Below, piece after piece: positions 22,845 through 55,900 of a stretch of 64,000 bases of DNA. Numbering within the stretch: the first letter of the stretch is position 1; the number at the start of each line of letters is the position of its first letter. The stretch lies in assembly GCA_030390025.1 (NCBI GenBank), contig CM059431.1, positions 133,736,001-133,800,000 of the forward strand. Reading direction: 5' to 3'. The notes beneath the pieces are model-generated. The model had not been told where the DNA came from. It saw only the letters and a program-made list of their open reading frames with translations, and did no database searches. The translations under genes were made by a program, and so were the position numbers. The DNA is from Squalus acanthias. Its lineage: Eukaryota.

Positions 22845-24449
22845 AGAATAATAGAGTACTGATGGAGGCCATTCAGCCCATCAAGTCTGTGCCAGCTCTT
22901 TCGAAGAGCAATTCAGTTAATCACTTTCCCCATTCCCTGCAATTTTTCTATTTCAAGTATTTATCCGATTCCCTTTTGAAGGCTACTATTGAATCTGTTT
23001 CCACCACCCTATCAGGCAGCGCATTCCAAATCCTAACCACTCGTTCCGTAAAAAAGATTTCCTCATGTCGCCTCTAGTTCTTTTGCCAATCACCGTAAAT
23101 CTGTGTCCTCTGGTTATCGACCTTTCAGCCATTAGAAACAGTTTCTCTTTATTTACCCTATATTTTAAACACCTCAATCGAATCTCCTCTTAGCCTTCTC
23201 TGCTCTAAGGAGAACAACCGCAGCTTCTCCAGTCTATCCACATAACTGTAATCCCTTATCATAGAATCATAGAAAGAATCATAGAAAGTTACAGTACGGA
23301 AGGAGGCCATTTCAGCCCATCGTGTCCATGACGGCCAACAAAGAGCTATCCAGCCTAATCCCACTTCCCAGCTCTTGGTCCATAGCCCTGCAGGTTACAG
23401 CATCCCAAGAGCACATCCAAGTACTTTTTAAATGTGGTTAGGGTTTCTGCCTTTACCACCCTTTCAGGCAGTGAGTTCCAGACCCCCACAACCCACTGGG
23501 TGAAGAAATTTCCCCTCAAATCCCCTTTAAACCTTCCACCAATTACTTTAAATCTGTGCCCCTGGTTTTTGACCCCTCTGCTAAGGGAAATAAGTCCTTT
23601 CTATCCACTCTATCTAGGCCCCTCATAATTTTATACACCTCAATAAGGTCTCCCCTCAGCCTCCTCTGTTTCAAGGAAAACAAACCCAGCCTATCCAGTC
23701 TTTCCTCATAGCTAAGATTCTCTACTCCTGGCAACATCCTTGTAAATCTCCTCTGTACCCTCTCTCGTGCAATCACATCTTTCCTGTAATGTGCTGACCA
23801 GAACTGCATGCAGTACTCTAGCTGAGGCCTAACTAGTGTTTTATACAGTTGAAGCATAACCCCCCTGCTCTTGTATTCTATGCCACAGCTAATAAAGGCA
23901 AGCATCCTGTATGCCTTCTTAACCACCTTATCTACCTGGCCTGCTACCTTCAGGGATCTGTGGACATGCACTCCAAGGTCCCTTTGTTCCTCTACACTAT
24001 TCAGTGTCCTACCATTTAATGTGTATTCCCTTTCCTTGTTAGCCCTCCCCAAATGTATTACCTCACACTTCTCCGGATTGAATTCCATTTGCCACTGTTC
24101 TGCCCACCTGACCAATTTATTGATATCTTCCTGCAGTCTACAGCTTCCTTCTTCAGTATCAACCACACAGCCGACTTTAGTATCATCTGCAAACTTCTTA
24201 ATCATACCCCCTATATTCAAGCCTAGATCATTGATATAAACCACAAAAAGCAAGGGACCTAGTGCTGAGCCCTGCGGAACCCCACTGGAAACAGCCTTCC
24301 AGTCACAAAACACCCATCAACCATTACCCTCTGCTTCCTGCCTCCGAGCCAGTTTTGAATCCCTCGAACTATTCTAGTAAATCTCTTCTGTACCCTCTCC
24401 AAAGCCTTTACATCCTTCCTAAAGTGTGATGACCAGAATTGGACACAAT
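22845..24449 (-). mobile_element. CR1 LINE with a second CR1 (about 23260-24360) nested; outer copy continues at 31766-31863
   Basis: 256-aa RT ORF 23543-24313; outer CR1 rejoins across the Harbinger TSD AAT. Confidence 0.85.
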
Positions 24450-26159: not shown

Positions 26160-29100
26160 TGTTGTGGCTGCCGCGAAGCACGAATTGAGGCCGAGTCAAT
26201 ATGTGGAACACATAGCTTTTAATTTCATCTCTGCTGGTCAAAATGGCTGCGACCACATTTCTCTCCAAAACCCTGAGGCCCCGCCCACTCCTTTTTTCCT
26301 GCCTTAAAGGCAGCATGCGCCTTAAAGGCAAGGTGCCCGATTTATTGTCCACGGACGGAAAAGTGGATTGCGCCCGTTTAGGTGGCGATCCGCCACACAG
26401 CTCCCCCCAGAATCCGCTTAGGAGGTGTGGACGAGATGGTGCGGCGGTCTGATGGGCCGGCCGAAGCGGCTCTTGTAGGATGCCGGTGGACGTGGAACGG
26501 CCGGCGTGGAGCAGCCGGGTGAACTGGCTTGAGGGCAGGTCGGCCGTGTGGTGGTGGACGAGCTACAGGGACCTGCTCACCGGGCTCCGAGTGTGCTGGC
26601 TTGAGTCGGTCAACCGACACTTTTTCGGTCCTGTCGCCCACTTGCAGGGTGAAAAATTAGTCCCCAGCCTGTAGCACCTTGTAGGGCCCGTCGTACGGGG
26701 GTTGAAGGGGTCCACGGTGGGCGTCGTGCAGGACGAAAACAAACCGTGCCTGGTGCAGGCTTAGTGGGACGTGTGAGGTGGATTCGCCGTGTCGGGCAAT
26801 GGGCACCGGGGCGAACTGTAGCGCTGGTGAGGCGCAGTCGTGGCGTTGCTGGTCGGCTGACCAGGGTGTCATGGCGGTGGGCAGGAACTCGCCGGATACG
26901 CGCAGTGGCTGACCGTACACGAGCTCTGCCGCCGATGCGTGGAGGTATTCTTTAACCGCGGTGCGCAGGCCGAGGAGGACCCACGGGAGTCGGTCGATCC
27001 AGGCGCCGTTCTGGAGGCTGGCTCGAAGAGATGCCTTCAAGGATCTGTGGGACCGCTCACACAGTCCGTTGGCTTGGGGGTGGTACGCTGTGGTGCGGTG
27101 AATGGTCACCCCGAGATTGCGTGCGACGGCGGTCCAGAGTTCAGAGGTAAATTGCGGACCTCTGTCCGACGTCATGTCGGAGGGGACGCCGAACCGTGCG
27201 ACCCAGGTGCTGACGAAGGCTCTGGCGATGTCGGCGGTGGTGGTAGAGGTCAGTGGAATTGCCTCGGGCCAGCGCGTGGTGCGGTCAACGATCGTCAGCA
27301 AGTGCGTGTGGCCTTGCGACGGCGGCAGGGGCCTGACGATGTCCTCGTGGATGTGGTCGAATCTACGCGAAGGGACGGTAAACTCCTCGAGGGGTGCTTT
27401 TGTGTGTTGCTGCACCTTGGCCCGTTGGCAGGCTAGGCAGGAGTTGGCCCAAGTACGCACATCCTTGCGAAGGCCGCGCCAGACAAAGTGGTTGGCTACC
27501 AATTTGATGGATGTGCGGGCGCCGGGGTGGGAGAGGTTGTGGAGAATGTCGAATACCCGGCGGCGCCAGGACGCTGGGACGACGGGCCGAGGTTGACATA
27601 GGGATATGTCGCACTTGACCGTGACTGCGGTCGGGCCACAGGCGACATCGGCCAGGCGTAGCCCTGGTAGGTTGGTAGGTGTGGAGAGCAGATCAGGGTC
27701 GGTGATCTGGTCTGCTGCGAGTTGAGCGTAGTCGACTGCCAGGTGTGCGGCATGGATGGCGGGGCGGGATAGGCAGTCGGCTAACACATTGTCTTGGCCG
27801 GAGACGTGTTGGATGTCCGTGGTGAACTCGGACACTGCCGCGAGCTGGCGCTGCTGCCTGGCGGACCAGGGGTCGGTTGTCTTTGCCATTACGAATGTCA
27901 GGGGTTTGTGGTCGACAAACGCAGTGAAGGGGTGGCCCTCCAGCAAAAACCGAAAATGGCGGACCGCCAGGAACGGCGCGAGGAGCTCGCAGACGAAGGT
28001 ACTGTACTTGCCCTCTGGGGGGCGTAGTTGGCGGCTGAAGAAGGTAAGTGGTTGCCAGGCGCTGTCGACCCACTGCTCATACACGACGCCGACTGCGTGG
28101 TCGGAGGCGTCCGTGGTTAGCGCTACCCTGGCATTGGGCCGTGGGTGCGCGAGCAGGGTGGCGTTGGCGAGCGCGGTCTTGGTGGAGTCGAAGGCGGCGG
28201 ACGCGTCTGCCGTCCATTCGACCGCCATAATGCCGCTCCTGCCCCGGAGGGCTTCATACAGGGGCCTCATGAGGGACGCCGCTTTGGGGATGAAGTGGTT
28301 GTAGAAATTCACCATCCCGAGGAACTCCTGGAGGCCTTTGATGGTGGTGGGGCGGGGAAATTGTTGGACGGCCTGCACCTTGGTGGGCAGGGGAATGGCC
28401 CCAGCATGGGTGATGTGGTGGCCGAGGAAGTCGATCTTGTCCAGGCCGAACTGGCATTTGGCGGGGCTGAGGATGAGCCCGTGGTCGCTGAGGTGCCCGA
28501 ACAGGATGCGAAGGTGTTCGAGGTGTTCCTGCTTGGAGGAACTGGCTACCAGGATGTCGTCCAGGTAGACGAACAGGAACTTCAGGTCCCGAAGGACCGA
28601 GTCCATGAGCCGTTGGAATGCCTGGGCTGCGTTTTTGAGGCCGAAGGGCATCCGCAGGAACTCGAAAAGACCGAAGGGGGTGATTTCGGCCGTCTTGGGG
28701 ACGTCTGCGGGGTGGATGGGGGCTTGGTGGTAGCCGCGCACCAGGTCGACCTTGGAAAAGACTGAGCGGCCGGCCAGTCTAGCCGAGAAGTCCTGGATGT
28801 GCGGCATGGGGTACCGATCATGGGTGGTGGCGTCGTTGAAGCGGCGGTAATCCTTGCAGGGGCGCCAACCCCCGCCTGGTTTGGGGGCGATGTGGAGTGG
28901 GGAGGCCCAGGGACTGTTGGAGCGGCGGATGATGCTGAGCTGTTCCATGGTGGCAAACTCGGTCCGCGCGATCTGCAGTTTGGCCGGGTCCAGCCTGCGG
29001 GCGTGGGCGTACACTGGGGGTCCTGTGGTGGGGATGAAGTGTTCCACCCCGTGTTTGGCGGCCTCCGCGGAGAAGGTCGGATTGGTAAGGGCCGGGAATT

Positions 29101-30506
29101 CGGCCAGGAGTGCCGAGTAGTCATCCGTGGCCCGGGCGTGGCACTGTGATGCCATGTCGGCGGGTTGACGGGGGGCCATGGTGCCCAGGATGGGGGACAT
29201 GGTGTTCATGTCCACGAGGCGGTGTCGAGGGATGTCTACCAGTAGGCCGTGGGTGCACAGGAAATCTGCGCCGATGAGAGGGGAGAGCACCTTGGCAGTG
29301 ATGAACTCCCATCGGTAGCGGCGACCAGCGAGGTCGAGGGTGACTGTACGGGTGCCGTACGTCCGGATGTCCGAGCTGTTAGCAGCAGCCAGCGCCGGTC
29401 CTCGTTCGCCCTTTTGGATGTCGAGGGCGGAGGCCGGGATGATGCTGTGCTGAGCTCCAGTGTCGCACAGGAACCGGTGGCCGGTTTTGTCATCCGTGAC
29501 GTACAGCAGGGAGCCCGCGTGGCCCACGGCCATCGCAGGGGCTGGTGCGGGGGCGGACTTAAAAGAGCAGGGAGGTGTGCACCGTTGTGCCCTGGCGCCA
29601 AACCGTGCGTGGTAGTAACAGTGGCCCGGGTTAGTGGGGCGCGAAGGCCCCGTGAGCCCGGTGGCTGGGCCTTGTGGCCGCGTGGTGGCCGGTGAGGGGC
29701 ACGCCCAGGCAGTGGCTGCCAGGTCCGGAGTGACGTCGCGGCTGGAGTGAGCGGACAGCAGCTTGTCGGCCTCATCGGCCAGGGCTTCCAGGTCCGTGAG
29801 GCCGGACGCCATGATCGCTGGGCGGATGCTGAGAGGTAGCTGGCGGTTGAACAGTGTGCGGAAGAGGGATCCGGATGGGCTCTCGTCGGTGAGGGAGAGC
29901 ATGTGGGAGATGAGGTCTGATGGTGAGGCATCACCGAGGCCTGGAAGGTCGAGGAGGTGGCAGTTTCGCTGGTATGTCGAGGCGTAAATTTTTTAAGGAG
30001 CGCGGCCTTAAGATGTGCATACTTGCCCTCCTCTGGTGGGTTCTGCAGCGCTGTCCAGACCTTCGTAACTGTGGAGCTACCGAGTGATGTGACGAGGTAG
30101 TCGTACTTCGTCCCATCTGTAGTGATGAGTTGCAGCCGAAATCGTGACTCGGCTTGGAGGAACAAGGCTTCGGGCTGGTTTTCCCAAAACTCCGGCAGTT
30201 TCACGGAAACTGCGTTCGTGTCCGCCATTGCAGTGCTCGGAATATGTTCTGAGCATCGGGGTCACCAATGTTGTGGCTGCTGCGAAACACGAATTGAGGC
30301 CGAGTCAAAAGTGGAACACATAGCTTTTAATTTCATCTCTGCTGGTCAAAATGGCTGCGACCACATTTCTCTCCAAAATCCTAGAGGCCCCGCCCACTCC
30401 TTTTTTCCTGCCTTAAAGGCAGCATGCACCTTAAAGGCAAGGTGCCCGATTTAATGTCCACGGACGGAAAAGTGGATTGCGCCCGTTTAGGTGGCGATCC
30501 GCCACA
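26160..30506 (-). mobile_element. Full-length Ty3/Gypsy LTR retrotransposon, CsRn1-like clade
   Basis: 238-bp TG..CA LTRs (30269-30506, 26160-26397); TSD GGGT; tRNA-Trp-type PBS TGGTGACCCCGA; PPT GGGGGGAGCTG; CHCC knuckle. Confidence 0.95.
26378..30228 (-). pseudogene. Gag-Pol polyprotein (Gag, protease DTGA, RT YLDD, RNase H, integrase with GPY), with one frameshift near 29980 and a stop at 26657
   Basis: ORFs 29236-30228 (N-terminal part), 26657-29902 (1081 aa) and 26378-26641. Confidence 0.92.
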
Positions 30507-42768: not shown

Positions 42769-43028
42769 AATCTTACATCCGCACAAATTTCCTGTCTGCT
42801 CAACTTGACTCTCTGTTATTTTTTTTGGATGTCATCTTAACCTAACCGATACTGGCGGGATCAGGTCAAACGAAAGTTTGACAGCCCGCCCAATTTTACT
42901 CTCCATTGACTTTCCCACTGTTAGGTTAACATGACCCCTCAAATTTTCGAGCGGGCCTTAAAATGGGTGACCAATGCTCCCACCCAAAACAGGCGGAAGC
43001 CTTATTTCAATATCTAAATCAGGCGCCT

Positions 43029-43908
43029 TGTAAGATTTCCAAAATTTGCAGATCCCCAAAAATATATCGAAAGGAAAAAAATAAGGACTTTGGAACTTTA
43101 AAGGAAACATGCCTGGACATGTCCGGCACATGGATGGTCTGGGAGTTCAAAGACCAGCAAACATTAACATTTGGACAATAGGCCCTGGGGAAAGGCCGCC
43201 CCACCCAAAACACAGAGCCCAGCAAGGAACCCAAAGCAGGAGAACAATGCAAGCTTCCGTGGAACAACAACGCAACAGGATCTAAGCCATTTGATTTGGT
43301 TTAGCACAGTTGAAAGCCCATCAAAATTTCAACAAAGACAATGAACAGGCCTCACCTGAAAACTCACTGCATCACGAAACCAGTTTTTCGTGAGGAGTTT
43401 TGTGGGGGGTGGGGGGGAGGGGGCGGGGGCGAAAAAGGACTATATCTATAGCAGGACCCAAGAGCTCTCTCTTTCGACTCGCTGACTATGCTGGAAACAA
43501 GGCTCTCTCGCAGCACTGCCCAGAAGCCACATGGTAAAGGAAGACGTTCGATGACCAGAATCACCATCGACTTACCTGGCTGGATTTCGTACTGTTAATA
43601 CCCCTGTCTGGTGAGCATTATCCCTGATCTCCTGAAACCCAAACCTAGATAGAAGTGGGATTTTTGGGAGGGATAAAGGTTTTTTTTTTCTTGTATACTG
43701 TAACCTGTTTAAGTGTGAAGTATGTTTAAGTTTGTTACCTTTTAACTTTAATAAAAGTTATAGTTCTTTCATTGGAACCTGTGGTCTACTGCATCTTTAT
43801 TCACAACCCCTAAATAAGTCCAAGTTTTGAACCTGGGGCGTGGGAGCGATTCGAACCGCTCACTGAGTCAGGGGAAAGGCTGACTCCTACCACAACCCAC
43901 ACCCTACA
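43029..43908 (+). repeat. 5' LTR (880 bp)
   Basis: TATA-like box near 43441; donor GTGAGC at 43611; AATAAA at 43750; direct repeat of 49482-50375. Confidence 0.95.
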
Positions 43909-43910
43909 AA

Positions 43911-45710
43911 ATGGCGACTGTGGCAAGGACTTGGCAAAAGGGTTGTGAAGCAGTAGACACTGATTCAGAAGAGAGAACTGTAATGGAAGAGAGGATTTCA
44001 GATTATGTATTCAGCAAAGTGAATATGGAAAAGAAGTGGGTCACTAATCTATTAAAAACTGGGTGTCCGGTAGATGCAGCAGCTAAATGGACAGAAGGGA
44101 AGGATCATAAAAAATCCTTAGAAAAGGCAGTCTGGCTGATGTGCTTCAAGAAACAGATCCAACTTTTGGACAGACTCGTTGAAGCACAGGCAGCCGAGAT
44201 TCGGGAGTCGGCCCTGGAAGTCCAAACGTAGGCCCTAGCAGGGGAGAAGTTACTGTTAGCATTGCAGGCACTAAACCAGGAAAGGGTGCAGTTAGTGGGG
44301 GAACACAAGTCCCGGCAGGATTATTTACAGTGCCAGGTCACTGAGGCCAAGAACAATGAGCTGAGGTTGCGGGAAAAGAATGCCCGCCTGGCAAAACAAG
44401 TAAGAGAGCAGGAGGAGACAGTAAAAGGCTTACAGGCAGCCTATAAGGTAATGAGCGCACAGGGGTTTGAGGATGCGGACCATGGCCCCTGCCAGAAGCA
44501 GATAGAGAGTCTCAGCCTTGCTCTAAGGAAGGCAAGAGGCGTGGCGTGCCTCATAAGCCCAAGTGCAGCCCAGGTCGACTTTACAGGGAACCTGGGGAGA
44601 ACGGTTCAGACACCAAAGATAGCGCCAAGGGACGACCCGGTTGAGGAGCGGGAGGGCCCACGACCACCACCCATAGCGCCAAGCTTTAGCGACAGTCTGG
44701 CAAGAAGAAGGGGTGGAGTTAGGGGCAGAAGCTGAGGTGGAAAAAACCCCGCAAGAGAGCTGGGACCGGGGCCGATGTGCCCGGCCCGGCAGGACAGATT
44801 TGGCCCACCCGCTGATAACGGGGATGCGGGACCCCTCCAAAGCCAGTTCGTGGCTCCCCACGGTACATAACAGCTTAGGGTAATGGTAAGCCACCTGAGT
44901 AAACTCACCCAACAAGGGGACCCCTCAGTTCACTTCATAGAGGTAGAGCAGGCAGCAGGCGTCAACGGCTGTGACGATGCCGAGATGGCAAAAATGCTCC
45001 TGTTCTCACTGGACAGCCGGTTATACCAGTCTCTCTCTGCTGAGAGCAAGAGAGGACAGAATGGGTATGCGGCCATCAGAGAGGAAGTTTTAGAGGCAAT
45101 GGGGATGAATGAGGGAAGTCCTTTCTCCCAGGTGGAGAAAACAGTGCAGCTCGCAGGAGAGACCCCACAGGCTTTTGCAGACAGGCTGTGGCCCGTGTAC
45201 AGGGGTGCTTGTGGTGGGGATCTTAACAGGGCTCACCTAAACCGGGACGAGCTGGCCCACTGGCTCCGTAGCCTAGTGGCAAACAGCTTGCCTCGGATCA
45301 AAACCCAGGCTGAGCTTTGGTTTGACCCGAAAGACCCCCGGGTCACCGAGGAGGCAGTGGTCAGACAGCTGAACCTGGCCTACCGGAACGGGAGAGGGGC
45401 GGAAGAGCCCCCACAAAAAGGGAAAGTACATGAAATAAAACCCGGCCAGAGTAGGAAGGAGTGGCATCAGGAGGGGAATAACCCTTCCAGCACAAAGCTT
45501 AACTGTTATGGGTGTGGGAAGGATGGTCACTGGAGGAAGGAGTGTAAGAATCCTTGGAAGGATAACAAGGGAAAGAATTCCTCAGCCCCAGCCCAAAAGG
45601 CAGAGACAGGGATCCCTCCCGCCACGGTCAAGTCATTTTTGGACACCATGAGGTCCCTATTGACTGGCCCAGGGAAGGTAGCAGCAGCCCAATACAACCC
45701 AGACTTCTGA
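43911..45710 (+). pseudogene. gag: gag (600 codons in one frame, with three premature stops at 44229, 44733 and 44868)
   Basis: N-terminal coiled-coil; MHR-like QLAGETPQAFADRL; CCHC knuckle CYGCGKDGHWRKEC. Confidence 0.85.
43912..43931 (+). promoter_or_regulatory. Primer-binding site, tRNA-Arg(TCG)-like
   Basis: TGGCGACTGTGGCAAGGACT 3 nt after the LTR; tRNA assignment is from memory and allows G-U pairs and one bulge. Confidence 0.6.
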
Positions 45711-46520
45711 CTGGAACCAGCGCAGCCTGCCTACCTGTGTCCCCTTGAAAGACACGCACAGGAAGAGACCTCCCGTAAGGAGGCCAGGTTAAATGAGCAG
45801 GCCTTACGGGAGGAGAACGCCCGCTTAACGGGGAAAGTAGACGGGCTAGAGGGGCAGCTTAGAGACAGGGTAGCCAGGAGCAGGGAGTATGAGGATTTAA
45901 ACCATGGGCCCTGTGAGGAAAGGATAAAAGGTCTGACCCAAGCCCTATCCAAAGCCAGAGGGATGGTTTGCTCAACAACCCCAGGGGAATTCACCACCCC
46001 GCAGTTGCAAGCCATGGTAGCAGAGTTGACCAAACTAAAACAGAATAGAAATCCTCAGCCTCCAGCAGGCGAGATTACTCAGAATGCACAAGCAGGGGCG
46101 CTGGCCTGTCTTGAGGGAGGAGTCACCCAGGCCCCTGTTCAAACCACCCCCCCTCTCTTCTGGGACTCAGGTGGGGAGGAGGAGGAGCCCGAACCAGATA
46201 GCCCCGCCCCCGATCCAGGTGTTGAACCAGCACCAGGCTGCGAAGAGTCACCTGACCCTGAAACAGGTTTAGAAGAGGTACAGCCTGAGGATAGAAATCC
46301 CCAGCCAGTGGCAGTGGAAGATTCACAGACCACACAACAGGGGCAGTGGCTCGTGTTAAAGACCCACCAGCCAGAAAACCCCCACCAGCCAGAGCCCCTG
46401 GAAGGTCCCCACGTACGCCACAGCCAAAGAAACCGTGGTCACCGGCTCCCCAATTTAAAAGGGCCGCCCCTCAAGCCAGGGGTCGATCTGAGGACAGAGG
46501 TTCCCGGCCAGCAGCCATAG
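45711..46520 (+). CDS. In-frame post-gag ORF: duplicated Gag coiled-coil plus acidic/proline-rich tail; no pol motifs
   Basis: Open from the gag TGA; LREENARL...NHGPCEERIKGLTQALSKARGMVC parallels gag LREKNARL...DHGPCQKQIESLSLALRKARGVAC. Confidence 0.6.
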   Translation: MEPAQPAYLCPLERHAQEETSRKEARLNEQALREENARLTGKVDGLEGQLRDRVARSREYEDLNHGPCEERIKGLTQALSKARGMVCSTTPGEFTTPQLQAMVAELTKLKQNRNPQPPAGEITQNAQAGALACLEGGVTQAPVQTTPPLFWDSGGEEEEPEPDSPAPDPGVEPAPGCEESPDPETGLEEVQPEDRNPQPVAVEDSQTTQQGQWLVLKTHQPENPHQPEPLEGPHVRHSQRNRGHRLPNLKGPPLKPGVDLRTEVPGQQP

Positions 46521-46841
46521 GCTGCAAGGGACCAAAGGTACAGGACACGGCCACACCAAAGGGAGTAGGGTGCTGCAGCCCGAACAGGGCTTAGTCTGGC
46601 CGCTCGGAGATGGGCGGCGAATGTACATAGTTTTTGTTTGTTAAATTTTGAGATTGTTAAGTTTGGGTGTTTTTAGTTAAATTTTAAGTAAGGTGGTTGG
46701 TAGTTTTAAAATGTTATAATTTCAAGAGTGTTTTGTATTGAGTCGAGGTCGCAAGACCCGACTATGCTTCACCCAAGCCAGAGAATCTACTTGGGACCTG
46801 GCTATATGCTCTTGTGTCTCCTTACAGAAGGGATTGTCGAT

Positions 46842-49193
46842 ATGAAGGGGGGCATACTCCTACTCGCTCTGATAGGAATGAGCGCTGGGAGGCGAGGTGA
46901 CGTGGAGGACTCCCACATTTTTGGGTGCTCAGGAGAGAGAGCACCGGTGGTGACTGCGGGTGGCAGCAAGCGAGGCGTGAAGGAGCTCGCTACCTATTCC
47001 CACGTGGGAAGATGGCCAGGGTGGCTGGGATCTAACTCCACCCGATACTCCAGTCAGACCGGGCTCACCTACGGGGAGGCCTCCCTCCCCTGTCCCAGCA
47101 TACAGGTTGTAGCCACTCGGGTCGGGGTCACTGAGGGGAAACGCGTGTGCCTGACCTGCAGAGGACAGATTCCCCTGGGAAGGTGGTGGTGGCTCAGGAA
47201 GCTGAGCAGAGACATGGGGGACCGTACAGCTGACTGGGAGCGACTGGGGAATGACACCCATCGGACCATTACGGGGGACCATAGGGGGGTGAGCGTGTGC
47301 TGGGACAAGTGGTGGAAATCGGAACAGGGGATTTATGTCTGCATGTGGGGGTCGCGGAAGGCCTGCCCCACGGGCATATCCATTATCTTTTCCGCAGCAT
47401 GGCTGGATAAGGGGAAGGGGGTGGAATGGGATTCCCACCTACACACTTGCATAGTCCCGCCCTCTCCAGCCCCAGTCAAGGCCACTGAACTCGTGGCACA
47501 CGCCCGTAAGCCCCTGCCCACGACCCAGACAGCAAGGACACGCACAGAGACATGCCCTACCACCACCAAGGGACCAGGGAATGGGCTGGTACTAGTGCCA
47601 ACCGAAAAGGTGCTATACCAGGGGGTACACTACGCGGTAGCTTCCGTGATCCTAAACCTCACGGAGGTACACTTACCTGAGTGGTGCCCCAAAGAGACGG
47701 AACAGCTATACCAGGCCCTGTTCAGAGAAATGTTCAGGAAGTTCTACGAGTTCGATTTCGCAAACATAGACAAAGCAGAACTGTACACTGCACACACTGA
47801 GTATTTTAGCAATACGGGGAGACAAAGGAGGGGAGCCTGGAATGATATTTTTACAGCGTATAATACAGGGTCCTCTGTCATCAACAGTCTGGATGACATA
47901 GAATTGCAGACACAAATAAATGGTTTAAAAACACAATTGCGCAAAATCTTAATGGATGAAAATACAGTAGTGGGCTCAGAGTTACACGAGGACCAAGCTA
48001 TGACGGTTCATTTAAAAGAAATCATTGCTGAGCTGGAAAGGCACGCAAAGACGGTAAATGCACTCATACGGGAGGACAGGAATGCATCAGACCAGGCTGC
48101 ACAGAACGAGGTGTGCGTACTGTACGGGGCATGGTTGCTAGGCGAGGGCCGGAGTAACCTGGAGGATTTAAAGCAAGGTTTAGTCCCCTCCTGGATCAGC
48201 AACAAGCACCTCGCAGCCCTCCACCCATTTGAGAATTCACTAAGCCCGTGTCAGCTCTGTCTAGCCTCTGAAGCCTACACTGTACCAGTAGATTGTGGGT
48301 GTTCCAATCACACTATCATGGGGATAGTGGTGAGGATGCCGGTCATGGGTGGGACTGCCCGACCCGCACCGGTATACAGGGTGGAGAACATTGGAGTCAT
48401 TCAAGGGGGTGCACACATCCGTTTCACAGCGGTCCCACCTTATGTCATAAAGTGGGAGCACGCTATGACAGGTACTGACCTCTCCGGGTGGCGGAGCCGG
48501 GGTCCACACATAATACTGTGTCCCCAGCACTTGAACGCCTATTCTAAACCACAGTGTGGGTTTAAAGCTGCGAGCACACGACCTATAAATTGTACCATGG
48601 AAGCCATGGCACAAGACCATGTTCCCCCACAGGTAACATATATAGGAGGTGGGACATATTGTGTCACCACCAGCGCGCCTCACTACCAGTATGGACAGCA
48701 TACCTGGTGTCCGGTAAGTGACAGCAGTTTCTGCTTTAAACCCGAGGCAGAAGTTCAAGTTGCCCAGGAACAGATTGTCCCCATTCCTGAACCCTCCACT
48801 GTTCACCTCACTGTAACACAAAATTTCACCAACCTGCAAAAATATGTAGCACATTTTGGCTACGAAATTCCCCCTCTACCAGAACGCCTTACCAAGTTAC
48901 TAAAAGCTGTAGAGCTCTCTCAAAAACATTTCTACACTTTAGAACAGAATACACACGAGATAGAGAGAGAGATTCAAGGTATCACAGTCCCACCCTGGTG
49001 GGACATCTTCGAAAACATAGAGGTCCCTTCATGGGTCAGAATGGCTTCCCACCTCCTCGTAGTTTGCCAACTGGGAATAGTATTGTACCTGGTGTGCACT
49101 CAGTGCAAGGGAAAGGGCAGAATACTACAGTTCCGAAATGAAAGGACTTGGAGGAAGCATTATGCTGAGGTGGAGAGAGATACACCTGTTTGA
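46842..49193 (+). CDS. env: Intact envelope/fusion glycoprotein, 783 aa
   Basis: Splice acceptor at 46827; signal peptide MKGGILLLALIGMSAG; Ig-like domain; furin site RQRR at 47820-47831; heptad; Cys-rich core; TM near 49041-49105. Confidence 0.88.
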   Translation: MKGGILLLALIGMSAGRRGDVEDSHIFGCSGERAPVVTAGGSKRGVKELATYSHVGRWPGWLGSNSTRYSSQTGLTYGEASLPCPSIQVVATRVGVTEGKRVCLTCRGQIPLGRWWWLRKLSRDMGDRTADWERLGNDTHRTITGDHRGVSVCWDKWWKSEQGIYVCMWGSRKACPTGISIIFSAAWLDKGKGVEWDSHLHTCIVPPSPAPVKATELVAHARKPLPTTQTARTRTETCPTTTKGPGNGLVLVPTEKVLYQGVHYAVASVILNLTEVHLPEWCPKETEQLYQALFREMFRKFYEFDFANIDKAELYTAHTEYFSNTGRQRRGAWNDIFTAYNTGSSVINSLDDIELQTQINGLKTQLRKILMDENTVVGSELHEDQAMTVHLKEIIAELERHAKTVNALIREDRNASDQAAQNEVCVLYGAWLLGEGRSNLEDLKQGLVPSWISNKHLAALHPFENSLSPCQLCLASEAYTVPVDCGCSNHTIMGIVVRMPVMGGTARPAPVYRVENIGVIQGGAHIRFTAVPPYVIKWEHAMTGTDLSGWRSRGPHIILCPQHLNAYSKPQCGFKAASTRPINCTMEAMAQDHVPPQVTYIGGGTYCVTTSAPHYQYGQHTWCPVSDSSFCFKPEAEVQVAQEQIVPIPEPSTVHLTVTQNFTNLQKYVAHFGYEIPPLPERLTKLLKAVELSQKHFYTLEQNTHEIEREIQGITVPPWWDIFENIEVPSWVRMASHLLVVCQLGIVLYLVCTQCKGKGRILQFRNERTWRKHYAEVERDTPV

Positions 49194-49481
49194 ATTTTTT
49201 TATTCTGTGTTCCTGAATAAAGATTGTTGTTTTTTTGTGTTTTGTTCTTTTTAATAAAGATATGTGTTTTCCCAAGCAGTGCAGGGGTGTCGGACCCTCT
49301 CCGTGCTTGGTTGTGAAATAAAGATTTTCTTACCTGTATGTACCTAAAACACCACATTTAAAGGGGAATGTATGTTTGGGGTTTTAGTTTAGGTAATACA
49401 GGGGAAGGTTGGTTTTCGGGGATCAGGAATTTTGTCCACCCAGGACGATACTGTAGTGAACTGAAGTATCGCAGGAGGGAC

Positions 49482-50375
49482 TGTAAGATTTCCAAAATTT
49501 GCAGATCCCCAAAAATATATCGAAAGGAAAAAAATAAGGACTTTGGAACTTTAAAGGAAACATGTCTGGACATGTCCGGCACGTCGATGGACTGGGAATT
49601 CAAAGACCAGCAAACATTAACATTTGGACAATAGGCCCTGGGGAAAGGCCGCCCCACCCAAAACACAGAGCCCATGGGAATGCTAGGACCAGCAAGGAAC
49701 CCAAAGCAGGAGAACAATGCAAGCTTCCATTGAACAACAACGCAACAGGATGTAAGCCATTTGATTTGGTTTAGCACAGTTGAAAGCCCATCAAAATTTC
49801 AACAAAGACAATGAACAGGCCTCACCTGAAAACTCACTGCATCACGAAACCAGTTTTTCGTGAGGAGTTTTGTGGGGGGGGGGGGGGGGGGCGGGGACGA
49901 AAAAGGACTATATCTATAGCAGGACCCAAGAGCTCTCTCTTTCGACTCGCCGACTATGCTGGAAACAAGGCTCTCTCGCAGCACTGCCCAGAAGCCACAT
50001 GGTAAAGGAAGACGTTCGATGACCAGAATCACCATCGACTTACCTGGCTGGATTTCGTACTGTTAATACCCCTGTCTGGTGAGCATTATCCCTGATCTCC
50101 TGAAACCCAAACCTAGATAGAAGTGGGATTTTTGGGAGGGATAAAGGTTTTTTTTTCTTGTATACTGTAACCTGTTTAAGTGTGAAGTGTGTTTAAGTTT
50201 GTTACCTTTTAACTTTAATAAAAGTTATAGTTCTTTCATCGGAACCTGTGGTCTACTGCATCTTTATTCACAACCCCTAAATAAGTCCAAGTTTTGAACC
50301 TGGGGCGTGGGAGCGATTCGAACCGCTCACTGAGTCAGGGGAAAGGCTGACTCCTACCACAACCCACACCCTACA
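49482..50375 (+). repeat. 3' LTR (894 bp)
   Basis: Direct repeat of the 5' LTR with about 11 substitutions, a 17-bp indel and G-tract variation. Confidence 0.95.
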
Positions 50376-51394
50376 GCCTACACCGGTTGTAGGACTTCGA
50401 TGCAATTTTCGAGTACGTATGGGTGGTCCTACCACTGGAGGCCACTCCTAAATGCCCAAAACAAGATCAGGTTTTCCTACCCCCCTTCAAGCGCTGACTC
50501 CCGACTCAGTTCTGTGAAGGAGCTGCCAAAATTCTGTCCCCTCCCCACCCTGAGCAGCAACTCACTGATTCCATTCAAATGAGGCTCGAACACAAAAATG
50601 ATTCGTGCCTTTCACTAACGCCATCAAGTGGGCAATGTGATTACTGCACCCACTGCCTGCCTGATGCATATATATATTCTTAAGGAGCAGAGTAAAGGAT
50701 TGTTTTATATCTCCTGAAGCTCTATATGTAAATTGGCCCTCATATGTCCACATTTTAATGGATTTTATTTGTCACCATCTGTAATTAGACAATTTGGCTC
50801 TGTGAACCAAATCTCTGAGTTGTTTCTCTGTGTTTGTCACCATACTGAATGCCTCCTTTTAGGTGAGTAAGTTTCCAGATAACCAGACCAACTGGCTTCA
50901 CTCCAGGAGATATAAAATAATCCTTCATTTTGCACCTTAAAAATATATATATTTTTTATTGTGCCCTGAGACAAATATTTCTTCCTCTGTTGGGCTGCAA
51001 TTCTGTTAATGTTGATGTTGCCGCCACAGCTGTTAGCAGCTTTGAACCTTAAGGCAACATTTTCCTAACCCACCCACTTTTTCTAAGGCTCCAGAGTGGC
51101 TATTCAGGCCTCAAGAGGTACCTCCAGCTCAGATTCACTCCTCAAAGTTGTCTATCCTTCCACCCCGTCTCCCATCCATCAAGTCCTAAGGACTCCATCT
51201 CCTCTCCCCTCCTGACTGCCTCCCGTTTTATCACTTACTGCTCACTTGATTGCCCACCCATTTCCAACCAACTCTTTAATGTTCAGGCCTTATCTCCCAC
51301 TCAGCGCCTTTCGTTACAGCAATCAGTGTGCTCCCCATCTCTTGAAATTGGCTTCCTTGCTTTTGGGATTCATACCCTTCCTCAGTTGCTCCCC

Positions 51395-52931: not shown

Positions 52932-55900
52932 ATAGAGTCATAACGGCACAGAAGGAGGCCATTCAGCCCATCGAGTCTGTGCCAGCTCTCTGTAGAGCAA
53001 TCCATTCAGTCCCATTCCCCCGCTCTATCCCCGTAGCCCTGCAAGTTTATTTCCATCAAGTGCCTATCCAGTCTCCCCTTGAAAACATTGAGTGTCTCCA
53101 CTTCCACCACTTCCATCGACAGCGAGTTCCAGGTCCTCACCACTCGCTGCATAAAAATGTTTTTCCTCACGTCCCCCCTGTATATCTTGGCCAAAACCTT
53201 AAATCTGTGTCCCCTAGTCCTTGTACCATCAACTAGTGGGAACAGCCTTTCCCGGTCTAGCCTATCCAAACCTGTCATAATCTTGTACACCTCTATCAAA
53301 TTACCCCTCAACCTCCTTTGCTCTAATGAAAACAAATCCAGCTTCTCCAACCTGTCCTTGTAGCTAAGATCCCTCATCTCCGGAACCATTCTGGTAAATC
53401 TCCTCTGCACCCTCTTAAGGGCCTTCACATCCTTCCTAAAGTGTGGTGACCAGAACTGGACGCAATACTGCAGTTGTGGCCTAACCAGCACTTTATAAAG
53501 GTTCAGCATAACTTCTCTACTTTTGTACTCAATACCTCTATTTATGAAGCCCAAGATCCCATATGCTTTGCTAACCACTCTCTCAATATGTCCTGCCACC
53601 TTCAGGGACTTATGCACATTAACTCCCAGGTCCCTCTTTTCCTGCACACTCTTTAAAACTGTGCCATTAAGTGTATATTGCCTCTCCCTGTCCCTTCTGC
53701 CAAAATGCATCACCTCACACTTCTCTGTATTAAATTCCATCTGCCACTTGTCTGCCCAGTCTGCTAGCCTTTCTATGTCCTGTTGCAGTCGATTGATATC
53801 ATCATCACTGTTTGCCACACCCCCAAGTTTGGTGTCATCGGCAAATTTAGAAATTCTACTCTGTATTCCAATATCCAGGTCATTTATATATATTTTAAAA
53901 AGCAGTGGCCCCAGCACTGACCCTTGGGAAACACCACTGTCTACCATCCTCCAGTCTGAAAAACAGCCATTTACCACAACTCGCTGTTTTTTATCCTTAA
54001 GCCAATTCCTTATCCAAGCTGCCATTGACCCACCTATTCCATGAGCCTCAAATTTGTTAACCAGCCTTCTATGTGGCACTTTGTCAAACGCCTTCCGAAA
54101 ATCCATGTAGACAACATCCATTGCATTCCCTTCATCAATCCTTCCTGTTACTTCATCAAAAAATTAAATTAGATTAGTCAAACACGATTTGCCTTTTACA
54201 AAACTGTGTTGGCTCTCCTGAATGAGCTTAAACCTCTCCAAGTGCCCGTTAATATTTTCCTTGATTAATGATTCTAAAATTTTACCCACTACTAATGTTA
54301 AACTGACCGACCTGTAGTTACTAGGATTGTCCTTACACCCTTTCTTGAACAATGGTGTCACATTTGCCACTTTCCAATCCTCAGGCACCTCCCCCGCATC
54401 TAGGGAAGATTGGAAAATTATGGCAAGCCCTTCCACTATCTCCTCCCCCAATTCCCTTAGCAACTTGGGATGCAAGCTATTTGGACCAGGCAACCTGTCC
54501 ACTCTAAGCATACCCAGCCTTTTTAGTACATCCTGTCTATCAATTTTCGCCCCGTCCATTGCTTCTACCTTTTCCACTTCATCGATATTTTGTCAGCATC
54601 CACCTCCTTAGTAAACACCGATACAAAGTACTCATTGAGTATTCTAGCCATGCCCTGCGCCTCTAAAAGCATATATCACCTTCTTTATCCCTAATAGGCC
54701 CCACCCCGCCTCTTACTACCCGCTTACTGTTTACATGTCAGTAGAAGATTTTTGTGTTCCCTTTTATGTTAACCGCCATTCTACTCTCATATTCTCTCTT
54801 TGCCAATCTTATTTTCATCTTCACTTCCCCTCTCAACCACCTCATTCCCCAGCACCAGATCCAGCAATGCCTCCTTCCTAGTTGGGCCAAGAACATACCG
54901 GTCAAGGAAATTCTCCTGAACACATTTCAGAAATTCCTCCCCCTCCTTTCCCTTTACCCTAGCATTATCCCAATCGCTATTTGGGTAATTATCACCACTC
55001 TATAGCTCTTGCATATCTCTGCGGTTTCCCTGTAGATTTGCTCCTCTACCTCCCTCTCAGTATTTGGAGGCCTATAGAATACCCCCAAGAGCATGATCAT
55101 ACCCTTTTTGCTCCTCAATTCTAACCAAATGGACTCTGTCCTTGTCCCCTCAGGAACATCCTCCCTTTCCAACACTACAATGTCTTCCTTAATCAGCACT
55201 GCCACCCACCTCCCTTTTTTCCTTCTCTATCTTTTCTGAACACCTTGTACCCTTAAATATTAAGTGCCCAGTCCTTACAAAGATAGGTGGGTTAGCAAGT
55301 TGTGAGGAGGACACAAACAGTCTGCAAAGGGATATAGATCGGTTAAGTGAGTGGTCAAAAATTTGGCACATGGAGTATAATGTGGGAAAATGTGAGGTTA
55401 TCCACTTTGGAAGGAAGAATGAAAAAGCAAATTATTATTTAAATGGAGTGAGACTACAAAATGCTGTGGTACAAAGGGATCTGGGGGTCCGAGTACATGA
55501 AACACAAAAAGTTAGCATGCAGGTACAGCAAGTAATTAGGAAGGCTAATGGAATGTTGGCCTTTATTGCAAGGGGTATGGAGTATAAAAGTAAGGAAGTT
55601 TTGATGCATCTTTACAGGGCACTGGTGAGACCTGGAGTACTGCGTACAGTTTTGGTCTCCATATTTAAGGAAGGATATACTTGCATTGGAGGCAGTGCAG
55701 AGAAGGTTCACTAGGTTGATTCCTGGGATGACGAAAGGTTGAGCAGGTTGGGCCTATACTCATTGGAGTTTAGAAGAATGAGAGGTGATCTTATTGAAAC
55801 ATAAGATTCTGAGGGGGATTGACAGTGTGGATGCTGAGAGGATGTTTCCCCTAGTGGGGGAATCTAGAACGAGGAGGCATAGTTTCAGAATAAGGGGTCG

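Follow-up and report, generated by a model that had tools for sequence, protein, structure and literature searches.

A pol-deleted endogenous retrovirus lineage carrying gag and env in Squalus acanthias, very probably spread with the enzymes of its relatives

In mouse, koala, cattle and human, some endogenous retroviruses (ERVs) are known to travel as passengers of competent relatives, and none of these passengers has working genes. In cattle, the defective D-type form of ERVK[2-1-LTR] accounts for 85% and the competent form for 15%, and the D-type is thought to be trans-complemented (PMC10924933, in the sections of the article available). The pol-less Athila elements of Arabidopsis have intact gag and env-like open reading frames under purifying selection and are mobilised in trans, and recombination among Athila lineages creates new gene combinations (accessible part of PMC2410132). 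The Env of lokiretroviruses matches the Pfam family PF00523 (E 2.2e-7), and the terms "cartilaginous", "shark" and "Chondrichthyes" are absent from the available portion of the main text of the lokiretrovirus paper (PMC7947760). The element described here is a non-autonomous ERV of a kind already known from ETn/MusD, recKoRV, the bovine ERVK D-type and pol-less Athila. What it adds is a pol-less form that keeps full-length gag and env, present in over a thousand copies versus a few dozen cognate helpers in an early-branching vertebrate. It very probably belongs to a non-autonomous, pol-deleted lineage of a class-I-like elasmobranch ERV that spread via the enzymes of its relatives, a mobilisation that we infer from one assembly.

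The window, a stretch of 64,000 nt of S. acanthias DNA to which all coordinates refer, contains at 43029-50375 an integrated provirus in which pol is absent, env is open and gag is interrupted. Its features are as follows.

43025-43028, + strand: left copy of the 4-bp target site duplication (TSD) GCCT, in the flanking sequence
43029-43908, + strand: 5' LTR, 880 nt, TG..CA, found as a direct repeat
43912-43929, + strand: candidate primer-binding site (PBS) TGGCGACTGTGGCAAGGA (TGG...), overlapping the first ATG of the gag frame
43911-45710, + strand: gag, 600 codons with TGA at the end, broken
44871-45401, + strand: Gag capsid (CA) domains, with a fold nearest MLV CA in the predicted structure
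45501-45551, + strand: nucleocapsid CCHC zinc knuckle (Pfam zf-CCHC)
45711-45749, + strand: protease (PR) codons 1-13, in frame after the gag TGA, the sole 5' pol remnant
45750-46041, + strand: gag-like filler where about 3.7 kb of pol should be
46042-46594, + strand: 3' pol remnant, the acidic and proline-rich C-terminal tail of integrase (IN)
46764-49193, + strand: env, 809 codons, an intact open reading frame
47820-47831, + strand: single furin-type motif RQRR of Env, residues 353-356, from a motif scan
49035-49109, + strand: Env membrane anchor, residues about 758-782, a hydrophobic segment
49471-49481, + strand: polypurine tract (PPT) gcaggagggac, directly before the 3' LTR
49482-50375, + strand: 3' LTR, 894 nt, found as a direct repeat
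50376-50379, + strand: right copy of the TSD GCCT, in the flanking sequence

The LTR pair was found as four direct-repeat blocks that are 96-98% alike, and pairwise alignment of the two LTRs gave 13 substitutions in 877 aligned sites (K2P 0.015) together with indels of 17, 2 and 1 nt. Both LTRs start with TG and end with CA, and GCCT flanks both ends, so that the two LTRs and the 4-bp duplication recorded in the first-pass annotation were borne out. A candidate PBS and a candidate PPT, both recorded there too, were located at the positions given above, in the expected places, and both are conserved in other copies; AGGGAC ahead of the LTR was also seen in copies L008, L009 and L021. The gag frame begins at the PBS without a leader. 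When tRNA genes were searched with one guessed pattern (T-loop plus acceptor end), none matched the PBS. Judged from its sequence, the window copy appears to be a fairly young insertion that is already decaying, with gag broken and env still open.

The gag gene with a CCHC knuckle claimed for this locus is present as a frame of 600 codons, but in the window copy it is broken by three in-frame stops, at 44229, 44736 and 44868. The stop at 44736 lies inside a short out-of-frame stretch (about 44692-44758) that is absent from 28-29 of the 29 other copies. The window gag aligns end to end with an intact 619-aa protein of another source (334 of 605 residues identical), and its knuckle scored just below the Pfam zf-CCHC cut-off (E 0.0011, 19.4 bits against 20.8). 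A Gag search of 1.84 billion representatives returned 44 matches, the real relatives among which are stand-alone Gags of about 310-630 aa. A Gag-Pol fusion sought among longer proteins gave one match, and the one long match in the larger search was rejected as a copia-type repeat protein aligning at the zinc knuckle only. The predicted structure of the Gag CA reached a pLDDT of 84-96 over residues 1-177, with one block at 71, and the model was closest to the C-terminal domain of MLV CA over 85 residues (Z 11.8, rmsd 2.3 A), followed by the full-length MLV CA (Z 11.6 and 11.4). The top Foldseek rows for this model were all capsids, none of them at E<=0.001. The modelled CA has the retroviral capsid fold, with MLV CA the nearest.

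A search of the six frames of 45601-46901 at E<=1 detected none of the PR, RT, RNase H and IN families, in agreement with the earlier statement that no enzyme motif lies between gag and env. The 1.1 kb between the two genes contains the first 13 PR codons, followed by the filler of gag-like sequence and by the C-terminal tail of integrase; in comparison with a complete relative, about 3.7 kb of pol has been replaced by about 292 nt. The filler corresponds to the N-terminal half of a gag, distantly related and shortened internally, with 41-43% amino acid identity to the known gags of the ERV family. Three possible sources were considered and rejected: the window's own gag (41% amino acid identity), the gag of the sister lineage (43%) and the database homologues of Gag (32-44% over alignments of 43 residues or more); a single 16-residue match to these homologues reached 75%. 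In the window copy, a private 1-nt deletion near 46339 shifts the reading frame that the family has in the integrase-tail remnant.

We searched for the gag/replacement junction elsewhere in the genome, and it recurs. A 32-mer across it, counted with at most 3 mismatches, gave 1343 matches in the 3.7-Gb genome, and the reversed control gave 0; this number overstates the independent insertions because some copies are segmental duplicates. The same 32-mer was present with at most 2 mismatches in all 29 fetched copies, and among 40 candidates scored, 28 other places matched the 1401-nt stretch 45500-46900 colinearly at 92-96%. The pol-less copies form subfamilies with common private changes and with one junction in all. 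Thus, the absence of pol is a family trait with the same junction genome-wide, and the earlier view that the structured replacement of pol argues against a random post-insertion deletion was upheld by the foreign gag-like filler and the recurring junction. By comparison, a 31-mer across the LTR and PBS of the window copy had only 13 matches genome-wide, and it provides no usable census because the window copy has private changes there. Of the 29 fetched pol-less copies, 8 have an open gag part, 11 an open post-gag frame (about 298 aa) and 8 an open env part (at least 552 aa). Parts of the window stretch were also contained in nine sequencing runs, none of them listed as RNA and eight of them RNA by guess only. 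Contigs of these runs, under two organism labels, bridge both pol-less junctions, 45749/45750 by one contig and 46041/46042 by two contigs, one per label. Among the run-contig matches listed, no spliced env mRNA joint was seen.

Pol-containing elements with the same LTR and PBS were sought as well, and they exist, with the same gag and env, but are far rarer. The order of the complete relative is gag, TGA, PR-RT-RNase H-IN and env, with gag and pol in one frame and a single stop between them. Its junction 33-mer, a pattern based on a single copy, had 26 matches genome-wide, and that of the sister lineage had 155; the deleted form thus stands to the cognate complete form at about 50 to 1 (1343 versus 26 junction matches). 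One pol-bearing copy (L063) runs from the 3' end of gag (92%) through PR, a frame for RT, tether and RNase H and an IN frame into a tail that equals the window sequence from 46042 onward. Another (L025) has the same LTR (88-90%), PBS and gag (93%) as the window element, and directly downstream of four pol-bearing copies lies an env that is 87-96% identical to that of the window. Matches to RT-RNase H were free of stops in 6 of 9 cognate rows and in 45 of 50 sister rows, and open pol frames in the relatives reach about 1500 aa. The best solved matches of their RT were MLV/XMRV RT (E 6e-67) and, about equal, foamy virus RT (1e-61). In copy L064 of the sister lineage, no PBS or LTR was seen. A 1111-aa pol frame neighbouring the provirus (26660-29992) was rejected as the pol of this ERV; it is 26% identical to its RT and belongs to another element.

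Seen from a single locus alone, with its decayed gag, the loss of pol could be a later deletion private to this locus in a complete provirus that had landed here; the same junction found 1343 times and in every fetched copy, with about 292 nt of foreign, gag-like DNA occupying the gap, leaves this explanation with practically no credence. It is also highly improbable that segmental or tandem duplication of DNA, rather than reverse transcription and integration, was the main route by which the pol-less form multiplied. One pair of solo LTRs (L018/L026) has both flanks in common and represents segmental duplicates, a same-strand cluster of copies on contig C6 (55-57 Mb) may do so too, and some pairs of junction matches sit 7-8 kb apart. 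However, the matches are spread over many contigs in both orientations (653 forward, 690 reverse), and L018/L026 is the only such pair among 19 solo LTRs, which leaves 18 of the 19 sites distinct. Moreover, perfect and differing 4-bp duplications were found at 9 of these 19 solo LTRs and at the two full-length pol-less copies that were checked, the second of which (L017/L012) has its own duplication TGTG; the 9-kb copies L061 and L062 are end-truncated at one LTR.

Retroviral RT switches templates frequently, and in other ERV families deleted forms have emerged repeatedly, so the pol-less genomes could be repeated dead-end products of a recombination hot spot in the complete virus rather than a self-propagating lineage. 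The recurrence pattern of deleted ERV forms is discussed in the part of PMC10924933 available. We consider such a recurrent origin distinctly unlikely: the filler was not copied from the helper each time, because its amino acid identity to the gags of both pol-bearing lineages is only 41-43%, the pol-less subfamilies combine common private changes with a single junction, and about 50 pol-less copies exist for each complete one. A further explanation, to which we likewise give little chance, is that the host keeps the window env, e.g., because the protein blocks a receptor as a restriction factor or works as a fusogen, and that the rest of the provirus is irrelevant. This env is the sole intact gene of the copy and the best-scoring env match in the genome. 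However, among 57 env rows elsewhere, 13 likewise lack stops, and the LTR divergence (K2P 0.015) points to a young insertion; the open 2.4-kb env frame needs no host selection because the insertion is young.

Spread of a pol-deleted lineage through the enzymes of its relatives probably began with a single ancestral recombination event, in its simplest form a pair of template switches while co-packaged RNAs were being reverse transcribed. This event would have removed PR-RT-RNase H-IN from PR codon 14 to the integrase tail and substituted about 292 nt from a distant gag for pol. The recombinant kept both LTRs, the PBS, the PPT, full gag and full env. Its RNA would be transcribed from the LTR and packaged in particles of its own or helper Gag, which are 93-97% alike, and the complete relatives would provide Gag-Pol, which they would make by reading through the same in-frame TGA at the end of gag. 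RT borrowed from these relatives could then copy the pol-less RNA from the common PBS and PPT, and the borrowed integrase would recognise the common TG..CA ends of the LTRs and insert with a 4-bp duplication, while Env might allow re-infection of germline cells.

The dN/dS of gag was 0.28-0.63 in frame versus 0.61-3.1 off frame. For env, the values within subfamilies (0.38-0.48 versus 0.64-1.21 off frame) were higher than the value of 0.13 measured between subfamilies (dS 0.77), where the off-frame controls gave 1.55-1.86. The within-subfamily dN/dS is only moderately below the off-frame controls, and the between-subfamily signal may come from pol-bearing lineages before recombination. No selection signal was detected in the filler (0.38-0.71 versus 0.28-0.56 in one wrong frame) or in the integrase-tail remnant (about 1.0). 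These comparisons only suggest that the pol-less copies require the Gag and Env that they encode, rather than just carrying both. In two pol-less subfamilies, gag is 97-98% alike and the env alleles are 75-82% alike; from env types that differ on near-identical backbones we infer that env alleles were probably exchanged between the pol-less form and the helper by recombination.

The intact env reported earlier was confirmed, as its 809 codons contain no stop. The predicted layout of Env comprises a signal peptide, one furin site, a fusion subunit of about 450 residues and a C-terminal anchor, with hydrophobic segments at residues 16-42 and 758-782 and heptad-like helices, read from the sequence, near both ends of the fusion subunit. 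No CX6CC motif was present in the 809 residues. The whole Env had no match to Pfam PF00523 at E<=1, and 13 members of the Env family matched no Pfam family, PF00523 included, at E<=10. Against the PDB there was no match by sequence and one chance match by profile (E 0.45), and a language-model search among named clusters yielded nothing usable for the whole Env. Judged by its sequence, Env is an orphan. The AlphaFold2 model built from a 13-row alignment had a mean pLDDT of 36.6 and was unusable for fold search. When residues 300-809 were used, the language-model neighbours were the clusters Gypsy/Baculo_F (0.95, with 208 of 256 features) and Fusion_gly (0.93). On this single language-model lead, Env may be F-like, and would then broaden the set of non-gamma retroviral envelopes of the F-like type.

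The first-pass annotation had proposed a satellite that supplies Gag and Env and borrows Pol in trans. The recurring junction and the complete relatives favour this idea, but the window copy itself is unable to supply Gag because its gag is broken. A vertebrate "satellite retrovirus" in the full sense would have its own working Gag and Env, the latter possibly of an F-type unreported in cartilaginous fishes, borrow enzymes only, infect the germline, out-replicate its helper 50-fold as one parasite living on another, trade env genes with it, and keep gag and env by selection at the level of the satellite; we regard this picture as possible, though doubtful. Should the passenger depend on its gag and env in order to spread, retroviruses would be capable of dividing into a "satellite" that provides the structural proteins and a "helper" that provides the enzymes. 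Such a split, if true, bears on how ERV families expand and die, on the shuffling of env genes among lineages, and on the retention of env in a high-copy family, against the env-less rule; Magiorkinis and colleagues reportedly found in 2012 that env-less ERVs spread best.

Compared with known systems, the shark element is like lokiretroviruses, as described in the available portion of PMC7947760, in its non-mammalian vertebrate host, its MLV-CA-like capsid and a non-gamma, possibly F-like Env with a predicted furin site, coiled coils and membrane anchor; unlike the lokiretrovirus Env, its own has no Pfam match at a threshold as loose as E<=10. It resembles MLV and other class I retroviruses of the gamma/epsilon type in having gag and pol of the family in one frame with a single stop, a 4-bp TSD and matches to MLV RT and CA. 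In contrast to MLV, its Env has no CX6CC, the fusion subunit of about 450 residues is far above the size of a gamma-type TM, gag starts at the PBS without a leader, and the integrase tail is long, acidic and proline-rich. Like Athila, it is a non-autonomous LTR element without pol that retains gag and env; Athila, however, is a plant Ty3/Gypsy element whose env-like function is unproven in the part of PMC2410132 available, whereas the shark element is a retrovirus-like provirus of a vertebrate, with a capsid similar to that of MLV, MLV-like RT in its family and a predicted furin-cleaved, membrane-anchored glycoprotein.

The enzyme-less shark element has the LTRs, PBS and flanking genes of a competent family in the same genome, and its identical deletion junction occurs at many insertions, with own TSDs at 2 full copies and 9 solo LTRs. 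As in the pairs of bovine D-type, MusD/ETn, IAP/IAP I-delta-1 and KoRV-A/recKoRV, the defective form has the LTRs and the flanking gag and env sequence of a rarer competent form, and the old piece that it carries, as the bovine D-type does, is a distant gag fragment (available sections of PMC10924933). According to the same sections, the bovine D-type, ETn and recKoRV are without functional genes, whereas the full-length gag and env of the shark element are open in some copies and under some purifying selection. The excess of the defective form, about 1343 to 26, is also larger than that in cattle (PMC10924933, in part), and the host is a cartilaginous fish.

The element at 43029-50375 of the window is a genuine integrated LTR element, and the observation made in the first-pass annotation, that of a pol-less LTR-gag-env structure with target-site duplication, PBS, PPT and an intact env, was confirmed. 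The LTR pair was detected as four direct-repeat blocks that are 96-98% alike, and the LTR-LTR alignment contains 13 substitutions over 877 sites (K2P 0.015) and three indels of 17, 2 and 1 nt. Both LTRs start with TG and end with CA, and the tetranucleotide GCCT stands on either side of the element. The 809 codons of the env frame are free of stops.

Features of the window element
43029-43908: 5' LTR, direct-repeat match to the 3' LTR
downstream of the 5' LTR: three A's, then the PBS-like sequence TGGCGACTGTGGCAAGGA
43911 to TGA 45708-45710: gag frame, 600 codons with three internal stops
45708-46594: region of the family's post-gag ORF (13 PR codons, gag-like filler, integrase tail)
45750-46041: gag-like filler, about 292 nt
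46764-49193: env frame, open, 809 codons
adjoining the 3' LTR: purine tract gcaggagggac
49482-50375: 3' LTR, direct-repeat match to the 5' LTR

The claimed absence of pol motifs between gag and env was borne out: at E ≤ 1, none of the six frames of 45601-46901 matched a PR, RT, RNase H or IN family. When the 1401-nt stretch 45500-46900 was used as a query, it was found colinear and 92-96% identical at 28 other places (40 candidates scored), and all 29 fetched copies contained the 32-mer of the 5' junction with no more than 2 mismatches. When up to 3 mismatches were allowed, this 32-mer matched the 3.7-Gb assembly (G000) 1343 times across many contigs (forward 653, reverse 690; reversed control 0), and the first 100 among the matches listed were all exact. 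For the pol-bearing form, the equivalent 33-mer had 26 matches (8 exact), and the corresponding junction pattern of a sister pol-bearing lineage had 155 (78 exact). The pol-less junction recurs genome-wide, and the pol-less state is a family trait, not a local accident.

Nineteen of the 28 other LTR loci are solo LTRs, nine of which have perfect, mutually different 4-bp duplications; both flanks are shared by just one solo-LTR pair, L018/L026, which is a segmental duplicate. A second full pol-less element (fetched as L017, L036 and L012) carries TGTG on both flanks, and two additional 9-kb copies have one truncated LTR and hence yielded no target-site duplication. Pol-less junctions were also seen in pairs 7-8 kb apart on one strand (contig positions C3:51942513/51950422, C3:163241296/163248745 and C6:35644204/35651403), and seven LTRs are clustered in 18 kb at C1:158978241-158995826, which suggests tandem LTR-internal-LTR-internal arrays or local duplications. 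At C5:61807041-61808891 (L008/L009) two family LTRs stand head to head with a 10-nt spacing, one ending a pol-less element and the other inverted. In another pol-less copy (L038:2989-3654) a retroelement with a LINE-like RT frame splits env at the equivalent of window position 46995 as a nested insertion.

Three matches of the junction query took in only its 3' part. One of these, extended upstream by 5 kb, yielded L063, the complete, pol-bearing relative, whose features are read on its minus strand.

Order of features in L063
1: gag 3' end, 92% identical to window 45146-45746, likewise with TGA
2: PR, with a frameshift near the active-site motif
3: 755-aa frame with RVT_1, RT_RNaseH_2/RT_RNaseH and RNase_H
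4: private insertion of 477 nt
5: 487-aa frame with Integrase_H2C2, rve and an SH3-like domain

The C-terminal tail of the 487-aa IN frame corresponds to window 46042 onward (84% identical). This, together with the gene order of L063, implies that the window element is the complete form minus pol, plus filler: about 3.7 kb of pol, from PR codon 14 to the integrase tail, has been swapped for the filler, in agreement with the structured replacement of pol proposed earlier. Part of the gap resembles the N-terminal half of the element's own gag (31/75 identical, E 2e-14). As sources of the filler, the gag of the family itself or of the sister lineage was rejected because the protein identity is only 41-43%, and so were Gag homologues from the databases, which reach 32-44% over alignments of at least 43 residues, with one 16-residue match at 75%. 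A filler variant in public contigs skips 45898-46035 (138 nt). The gag reading frame goes on past its TGA into a family ORF of about 298 codons, so that read-through would yield a Gag-X fusion. This ORF is open in 11 of the 29 fetched copies (L034, L036, L039, L042-L044, L046-L048, L050 and L054) and showed no clear selection signal; the 1-nt deletion near 46339 is private to the window copy. In three copies (C12:32531683-32533280, C8:30781514-30783112 and C6:59810158-59811736) about 180 nt of the integrase-tail remnant, equivalent to window 46049-46228, are tandemly duplicated.

A helper of the pol-less form is identifiable in the same genome. L025, which runs on into a pol-bearing junction match, shares with the window element its LTR (88-90% identical), its gag (93%) and its PBS (one mismatch), and four pol-bearing copies are directly followed by env frames 87-96% identical to the window env. 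In the cognate lineage 6 of 9 RT-RNase H rows have no internal stop, as do 45 of 50 in the sister lineage, and open frames reach about 1420-1520 aa, so that sources of the enzymes are plausible. At the DNA level the sister lineage shows 83-85% identity in pol and 77% in gag. In the pol-less copies and their relatives, gag is stop-free in 31 of 80 rows and env in 13 of 57. The central inference that Pol is borrowed in trans is thus supported by a helper in the same genome, shared cis elements and a repeated junction.

Two groups can be told apart among the fetched copies: A, with 96-97% identity to the window, comprises the window and 15 loci, and B, with about 90% identity, 8-9 loci. The groups are 96-99% alike across gag and the greater part of the post-gag frame, whereas most 200-nt windows at about 47000-48000 are only 75-82% alike.

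In-frame and wrong-frame dN/dS
env, A vs B (dS 0.77): in-frame 0.13; wrong-frame 1.55 and 1.86
env, within groups: in-frame 0.38-0.48; wrong-frame 0.64-1.21
gag: in-frame 0.28-0.63; wrong-frame 0.61-3.1
filler: in-frame 0.38-0.71; wrong-frame 0.28-0.56 in one frame, 1.46-2.11 in the other
integrase-tail remnant: in-frame about 1.0; wrong-frame 0.53-1.08

The low env ratio between the groups and the divergence of env on near-identical pol-less backbones mean that two long-diverged, functional env alleles are present. Each type was also found next to pol-bearing copies (with 96% and 87% identity to the window env), a distribution best explained by recombination of co-packaged genomes. The within-group ratios suggest, rather than prove, that gag and env were selected while the pol-less genomes multiplied; the ratio of the filler was not separable from that of one wrong frame.

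The CCHC knuckle of gag was found in the C-terminal 279 residues, just below the Pfam cut-off (zf-CCHC, E 0.0011, 19.4 bits; cut-off 20.8), and the gag frame of the window copy is interrupted. Relative to 29 other copies, the nonsense codons at 44229 and 44868 are private, as is the short out-of-frame stretch at about 44692-44758, in which the third stop lies. When each stop is written as X, the window gag aligns full-length (334/605 identical) to a protein of 619 aa that is intact in a short public contig. The first ATG (43911) overlaps the PBS (43912-43929). An untranslated leader between the two is thus missing in the family, which leaves only R-U5 or gag itself as the place of the splice donor and the packaging signal. 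The predicted structure of the C-terminal 279 residues (mean pLDDT 75.4; 84-96 over residues 1-177 except one block at 71) matches retroviral capsids. Structure comparison gave Z 11.8 with the MLV CA C-terminal domain (rmsd 2.3 Å over 85 residues) and 11.6 and 11.4 with full MLV CA, followed by Copia, Arc, PEG10, HERV-K, HTLV and HIV capsids. MLV entries were again at the top in Foldseek (E 3e-3), which returned zero rows at E ≤ 0.001.

A hydrophobic segment lies at the N-terminus of Env, which also has seven N-glycosylation sequons, 25 cysteines, a single furin-type motif (RQRR, 353-356) and a membrane anchor at about 758-782. Its C-terminal subunit of 453 residues has heptad-like helical stretches after the cleavage site and ahead of the anchor. 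No CX6CC motif occurs in the 809 residues, the Pfam search matched no family, and sequence and profile searches of solved structures found no match. Only 15 related proteins or fragments were found (57-85% identical); those with a name come from annotations of Pristiophorus japonicus, Rhinoraja longicauda and Scyliorhinus torazame, and the others are unnamed contig translations. These relatives make an elasmobranch host very probable. A protein-language-model search with the whole Env gave no usable match; with residues 300-809 the Gypsy-Env/Baculo_F cluster was nearest (0.95, 208/256 features in common) and paramyxovirus Fusion_gly clusters scored 0.93. AlphaFold gave no usable model (pLDDT 36.6), and similarity of Env to PF00523, a lokiretrovirus Env trait according to passages of PMC7947760, was not found. 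An F-like Env would fit the architecture, which we regard as a lead, not a result.

Among solved proteins the RT frame was closest to MLV/XMRV RT (E 6e-67), followed by foamy virus PR-RT (1e-61), Ty3 (1e-40) and HIV (1e-15), and the IN frame to foamy virus integrase (2e-35). From these matches, the in-frame gag-TGA-pol arrangement, the 4-bp duplication and the MLV-like predicted capsid, the family appears to be a class-I-like retrovirus with a non-gamma Env.

The window is repeat-rich, and no host genes were recognised in its frames of at least 130 aa. It also contains:

26660-30261 (-): Ty3/Gypsy-like element, GC-rich (61-64%)
13247-14386 (+): RVT_1-only frame
17695-18120 (+): RVT_1-only frame
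23546-24316 (-): RVT_1-only frame
53009-54163 (-): RVT_1-only frame

The Ty3/Gypsy-like element has an intact 1111-aa pol frame (RVT_1, RT_RNaseH_2, Integrase_H2C2, rve) with a 341-aa DUF7041 frame upstream; this pol frame is only 26% identical to the ERV RT and is thus unrelated to the ERV. The four RVT_1-only frames are most likely LINE fragments.

The window element is a single copy of an elasmobranch ERV derivative that is non-autonomous and has been very successful. No pol-less gag-plus-env family of cartilaginous fishes was described in the titles and abstract openings of the literature searched. According to passages of PMC10924933, the D-type of bovine ERVK[2-1-LTR] lacks functional genes, makes up 85% of elements and prevails among new insertions, and in ERVK C/D, MusD/ETn and KoRV-A/recKoRV a central segment has been replaced by a piece of an old retroelement while the flanking gag and env (or pol) are retained. 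The present family repeats the pattern outlined there, with a central swap and retained flanks. In its retention of gag plus env, the closest analogue is the plant element Athila, in which, as summarised in parts of PMC2410132, pol is absent, the gag and env-like ORFs are under purifying selection, and lineages recombine with each other.
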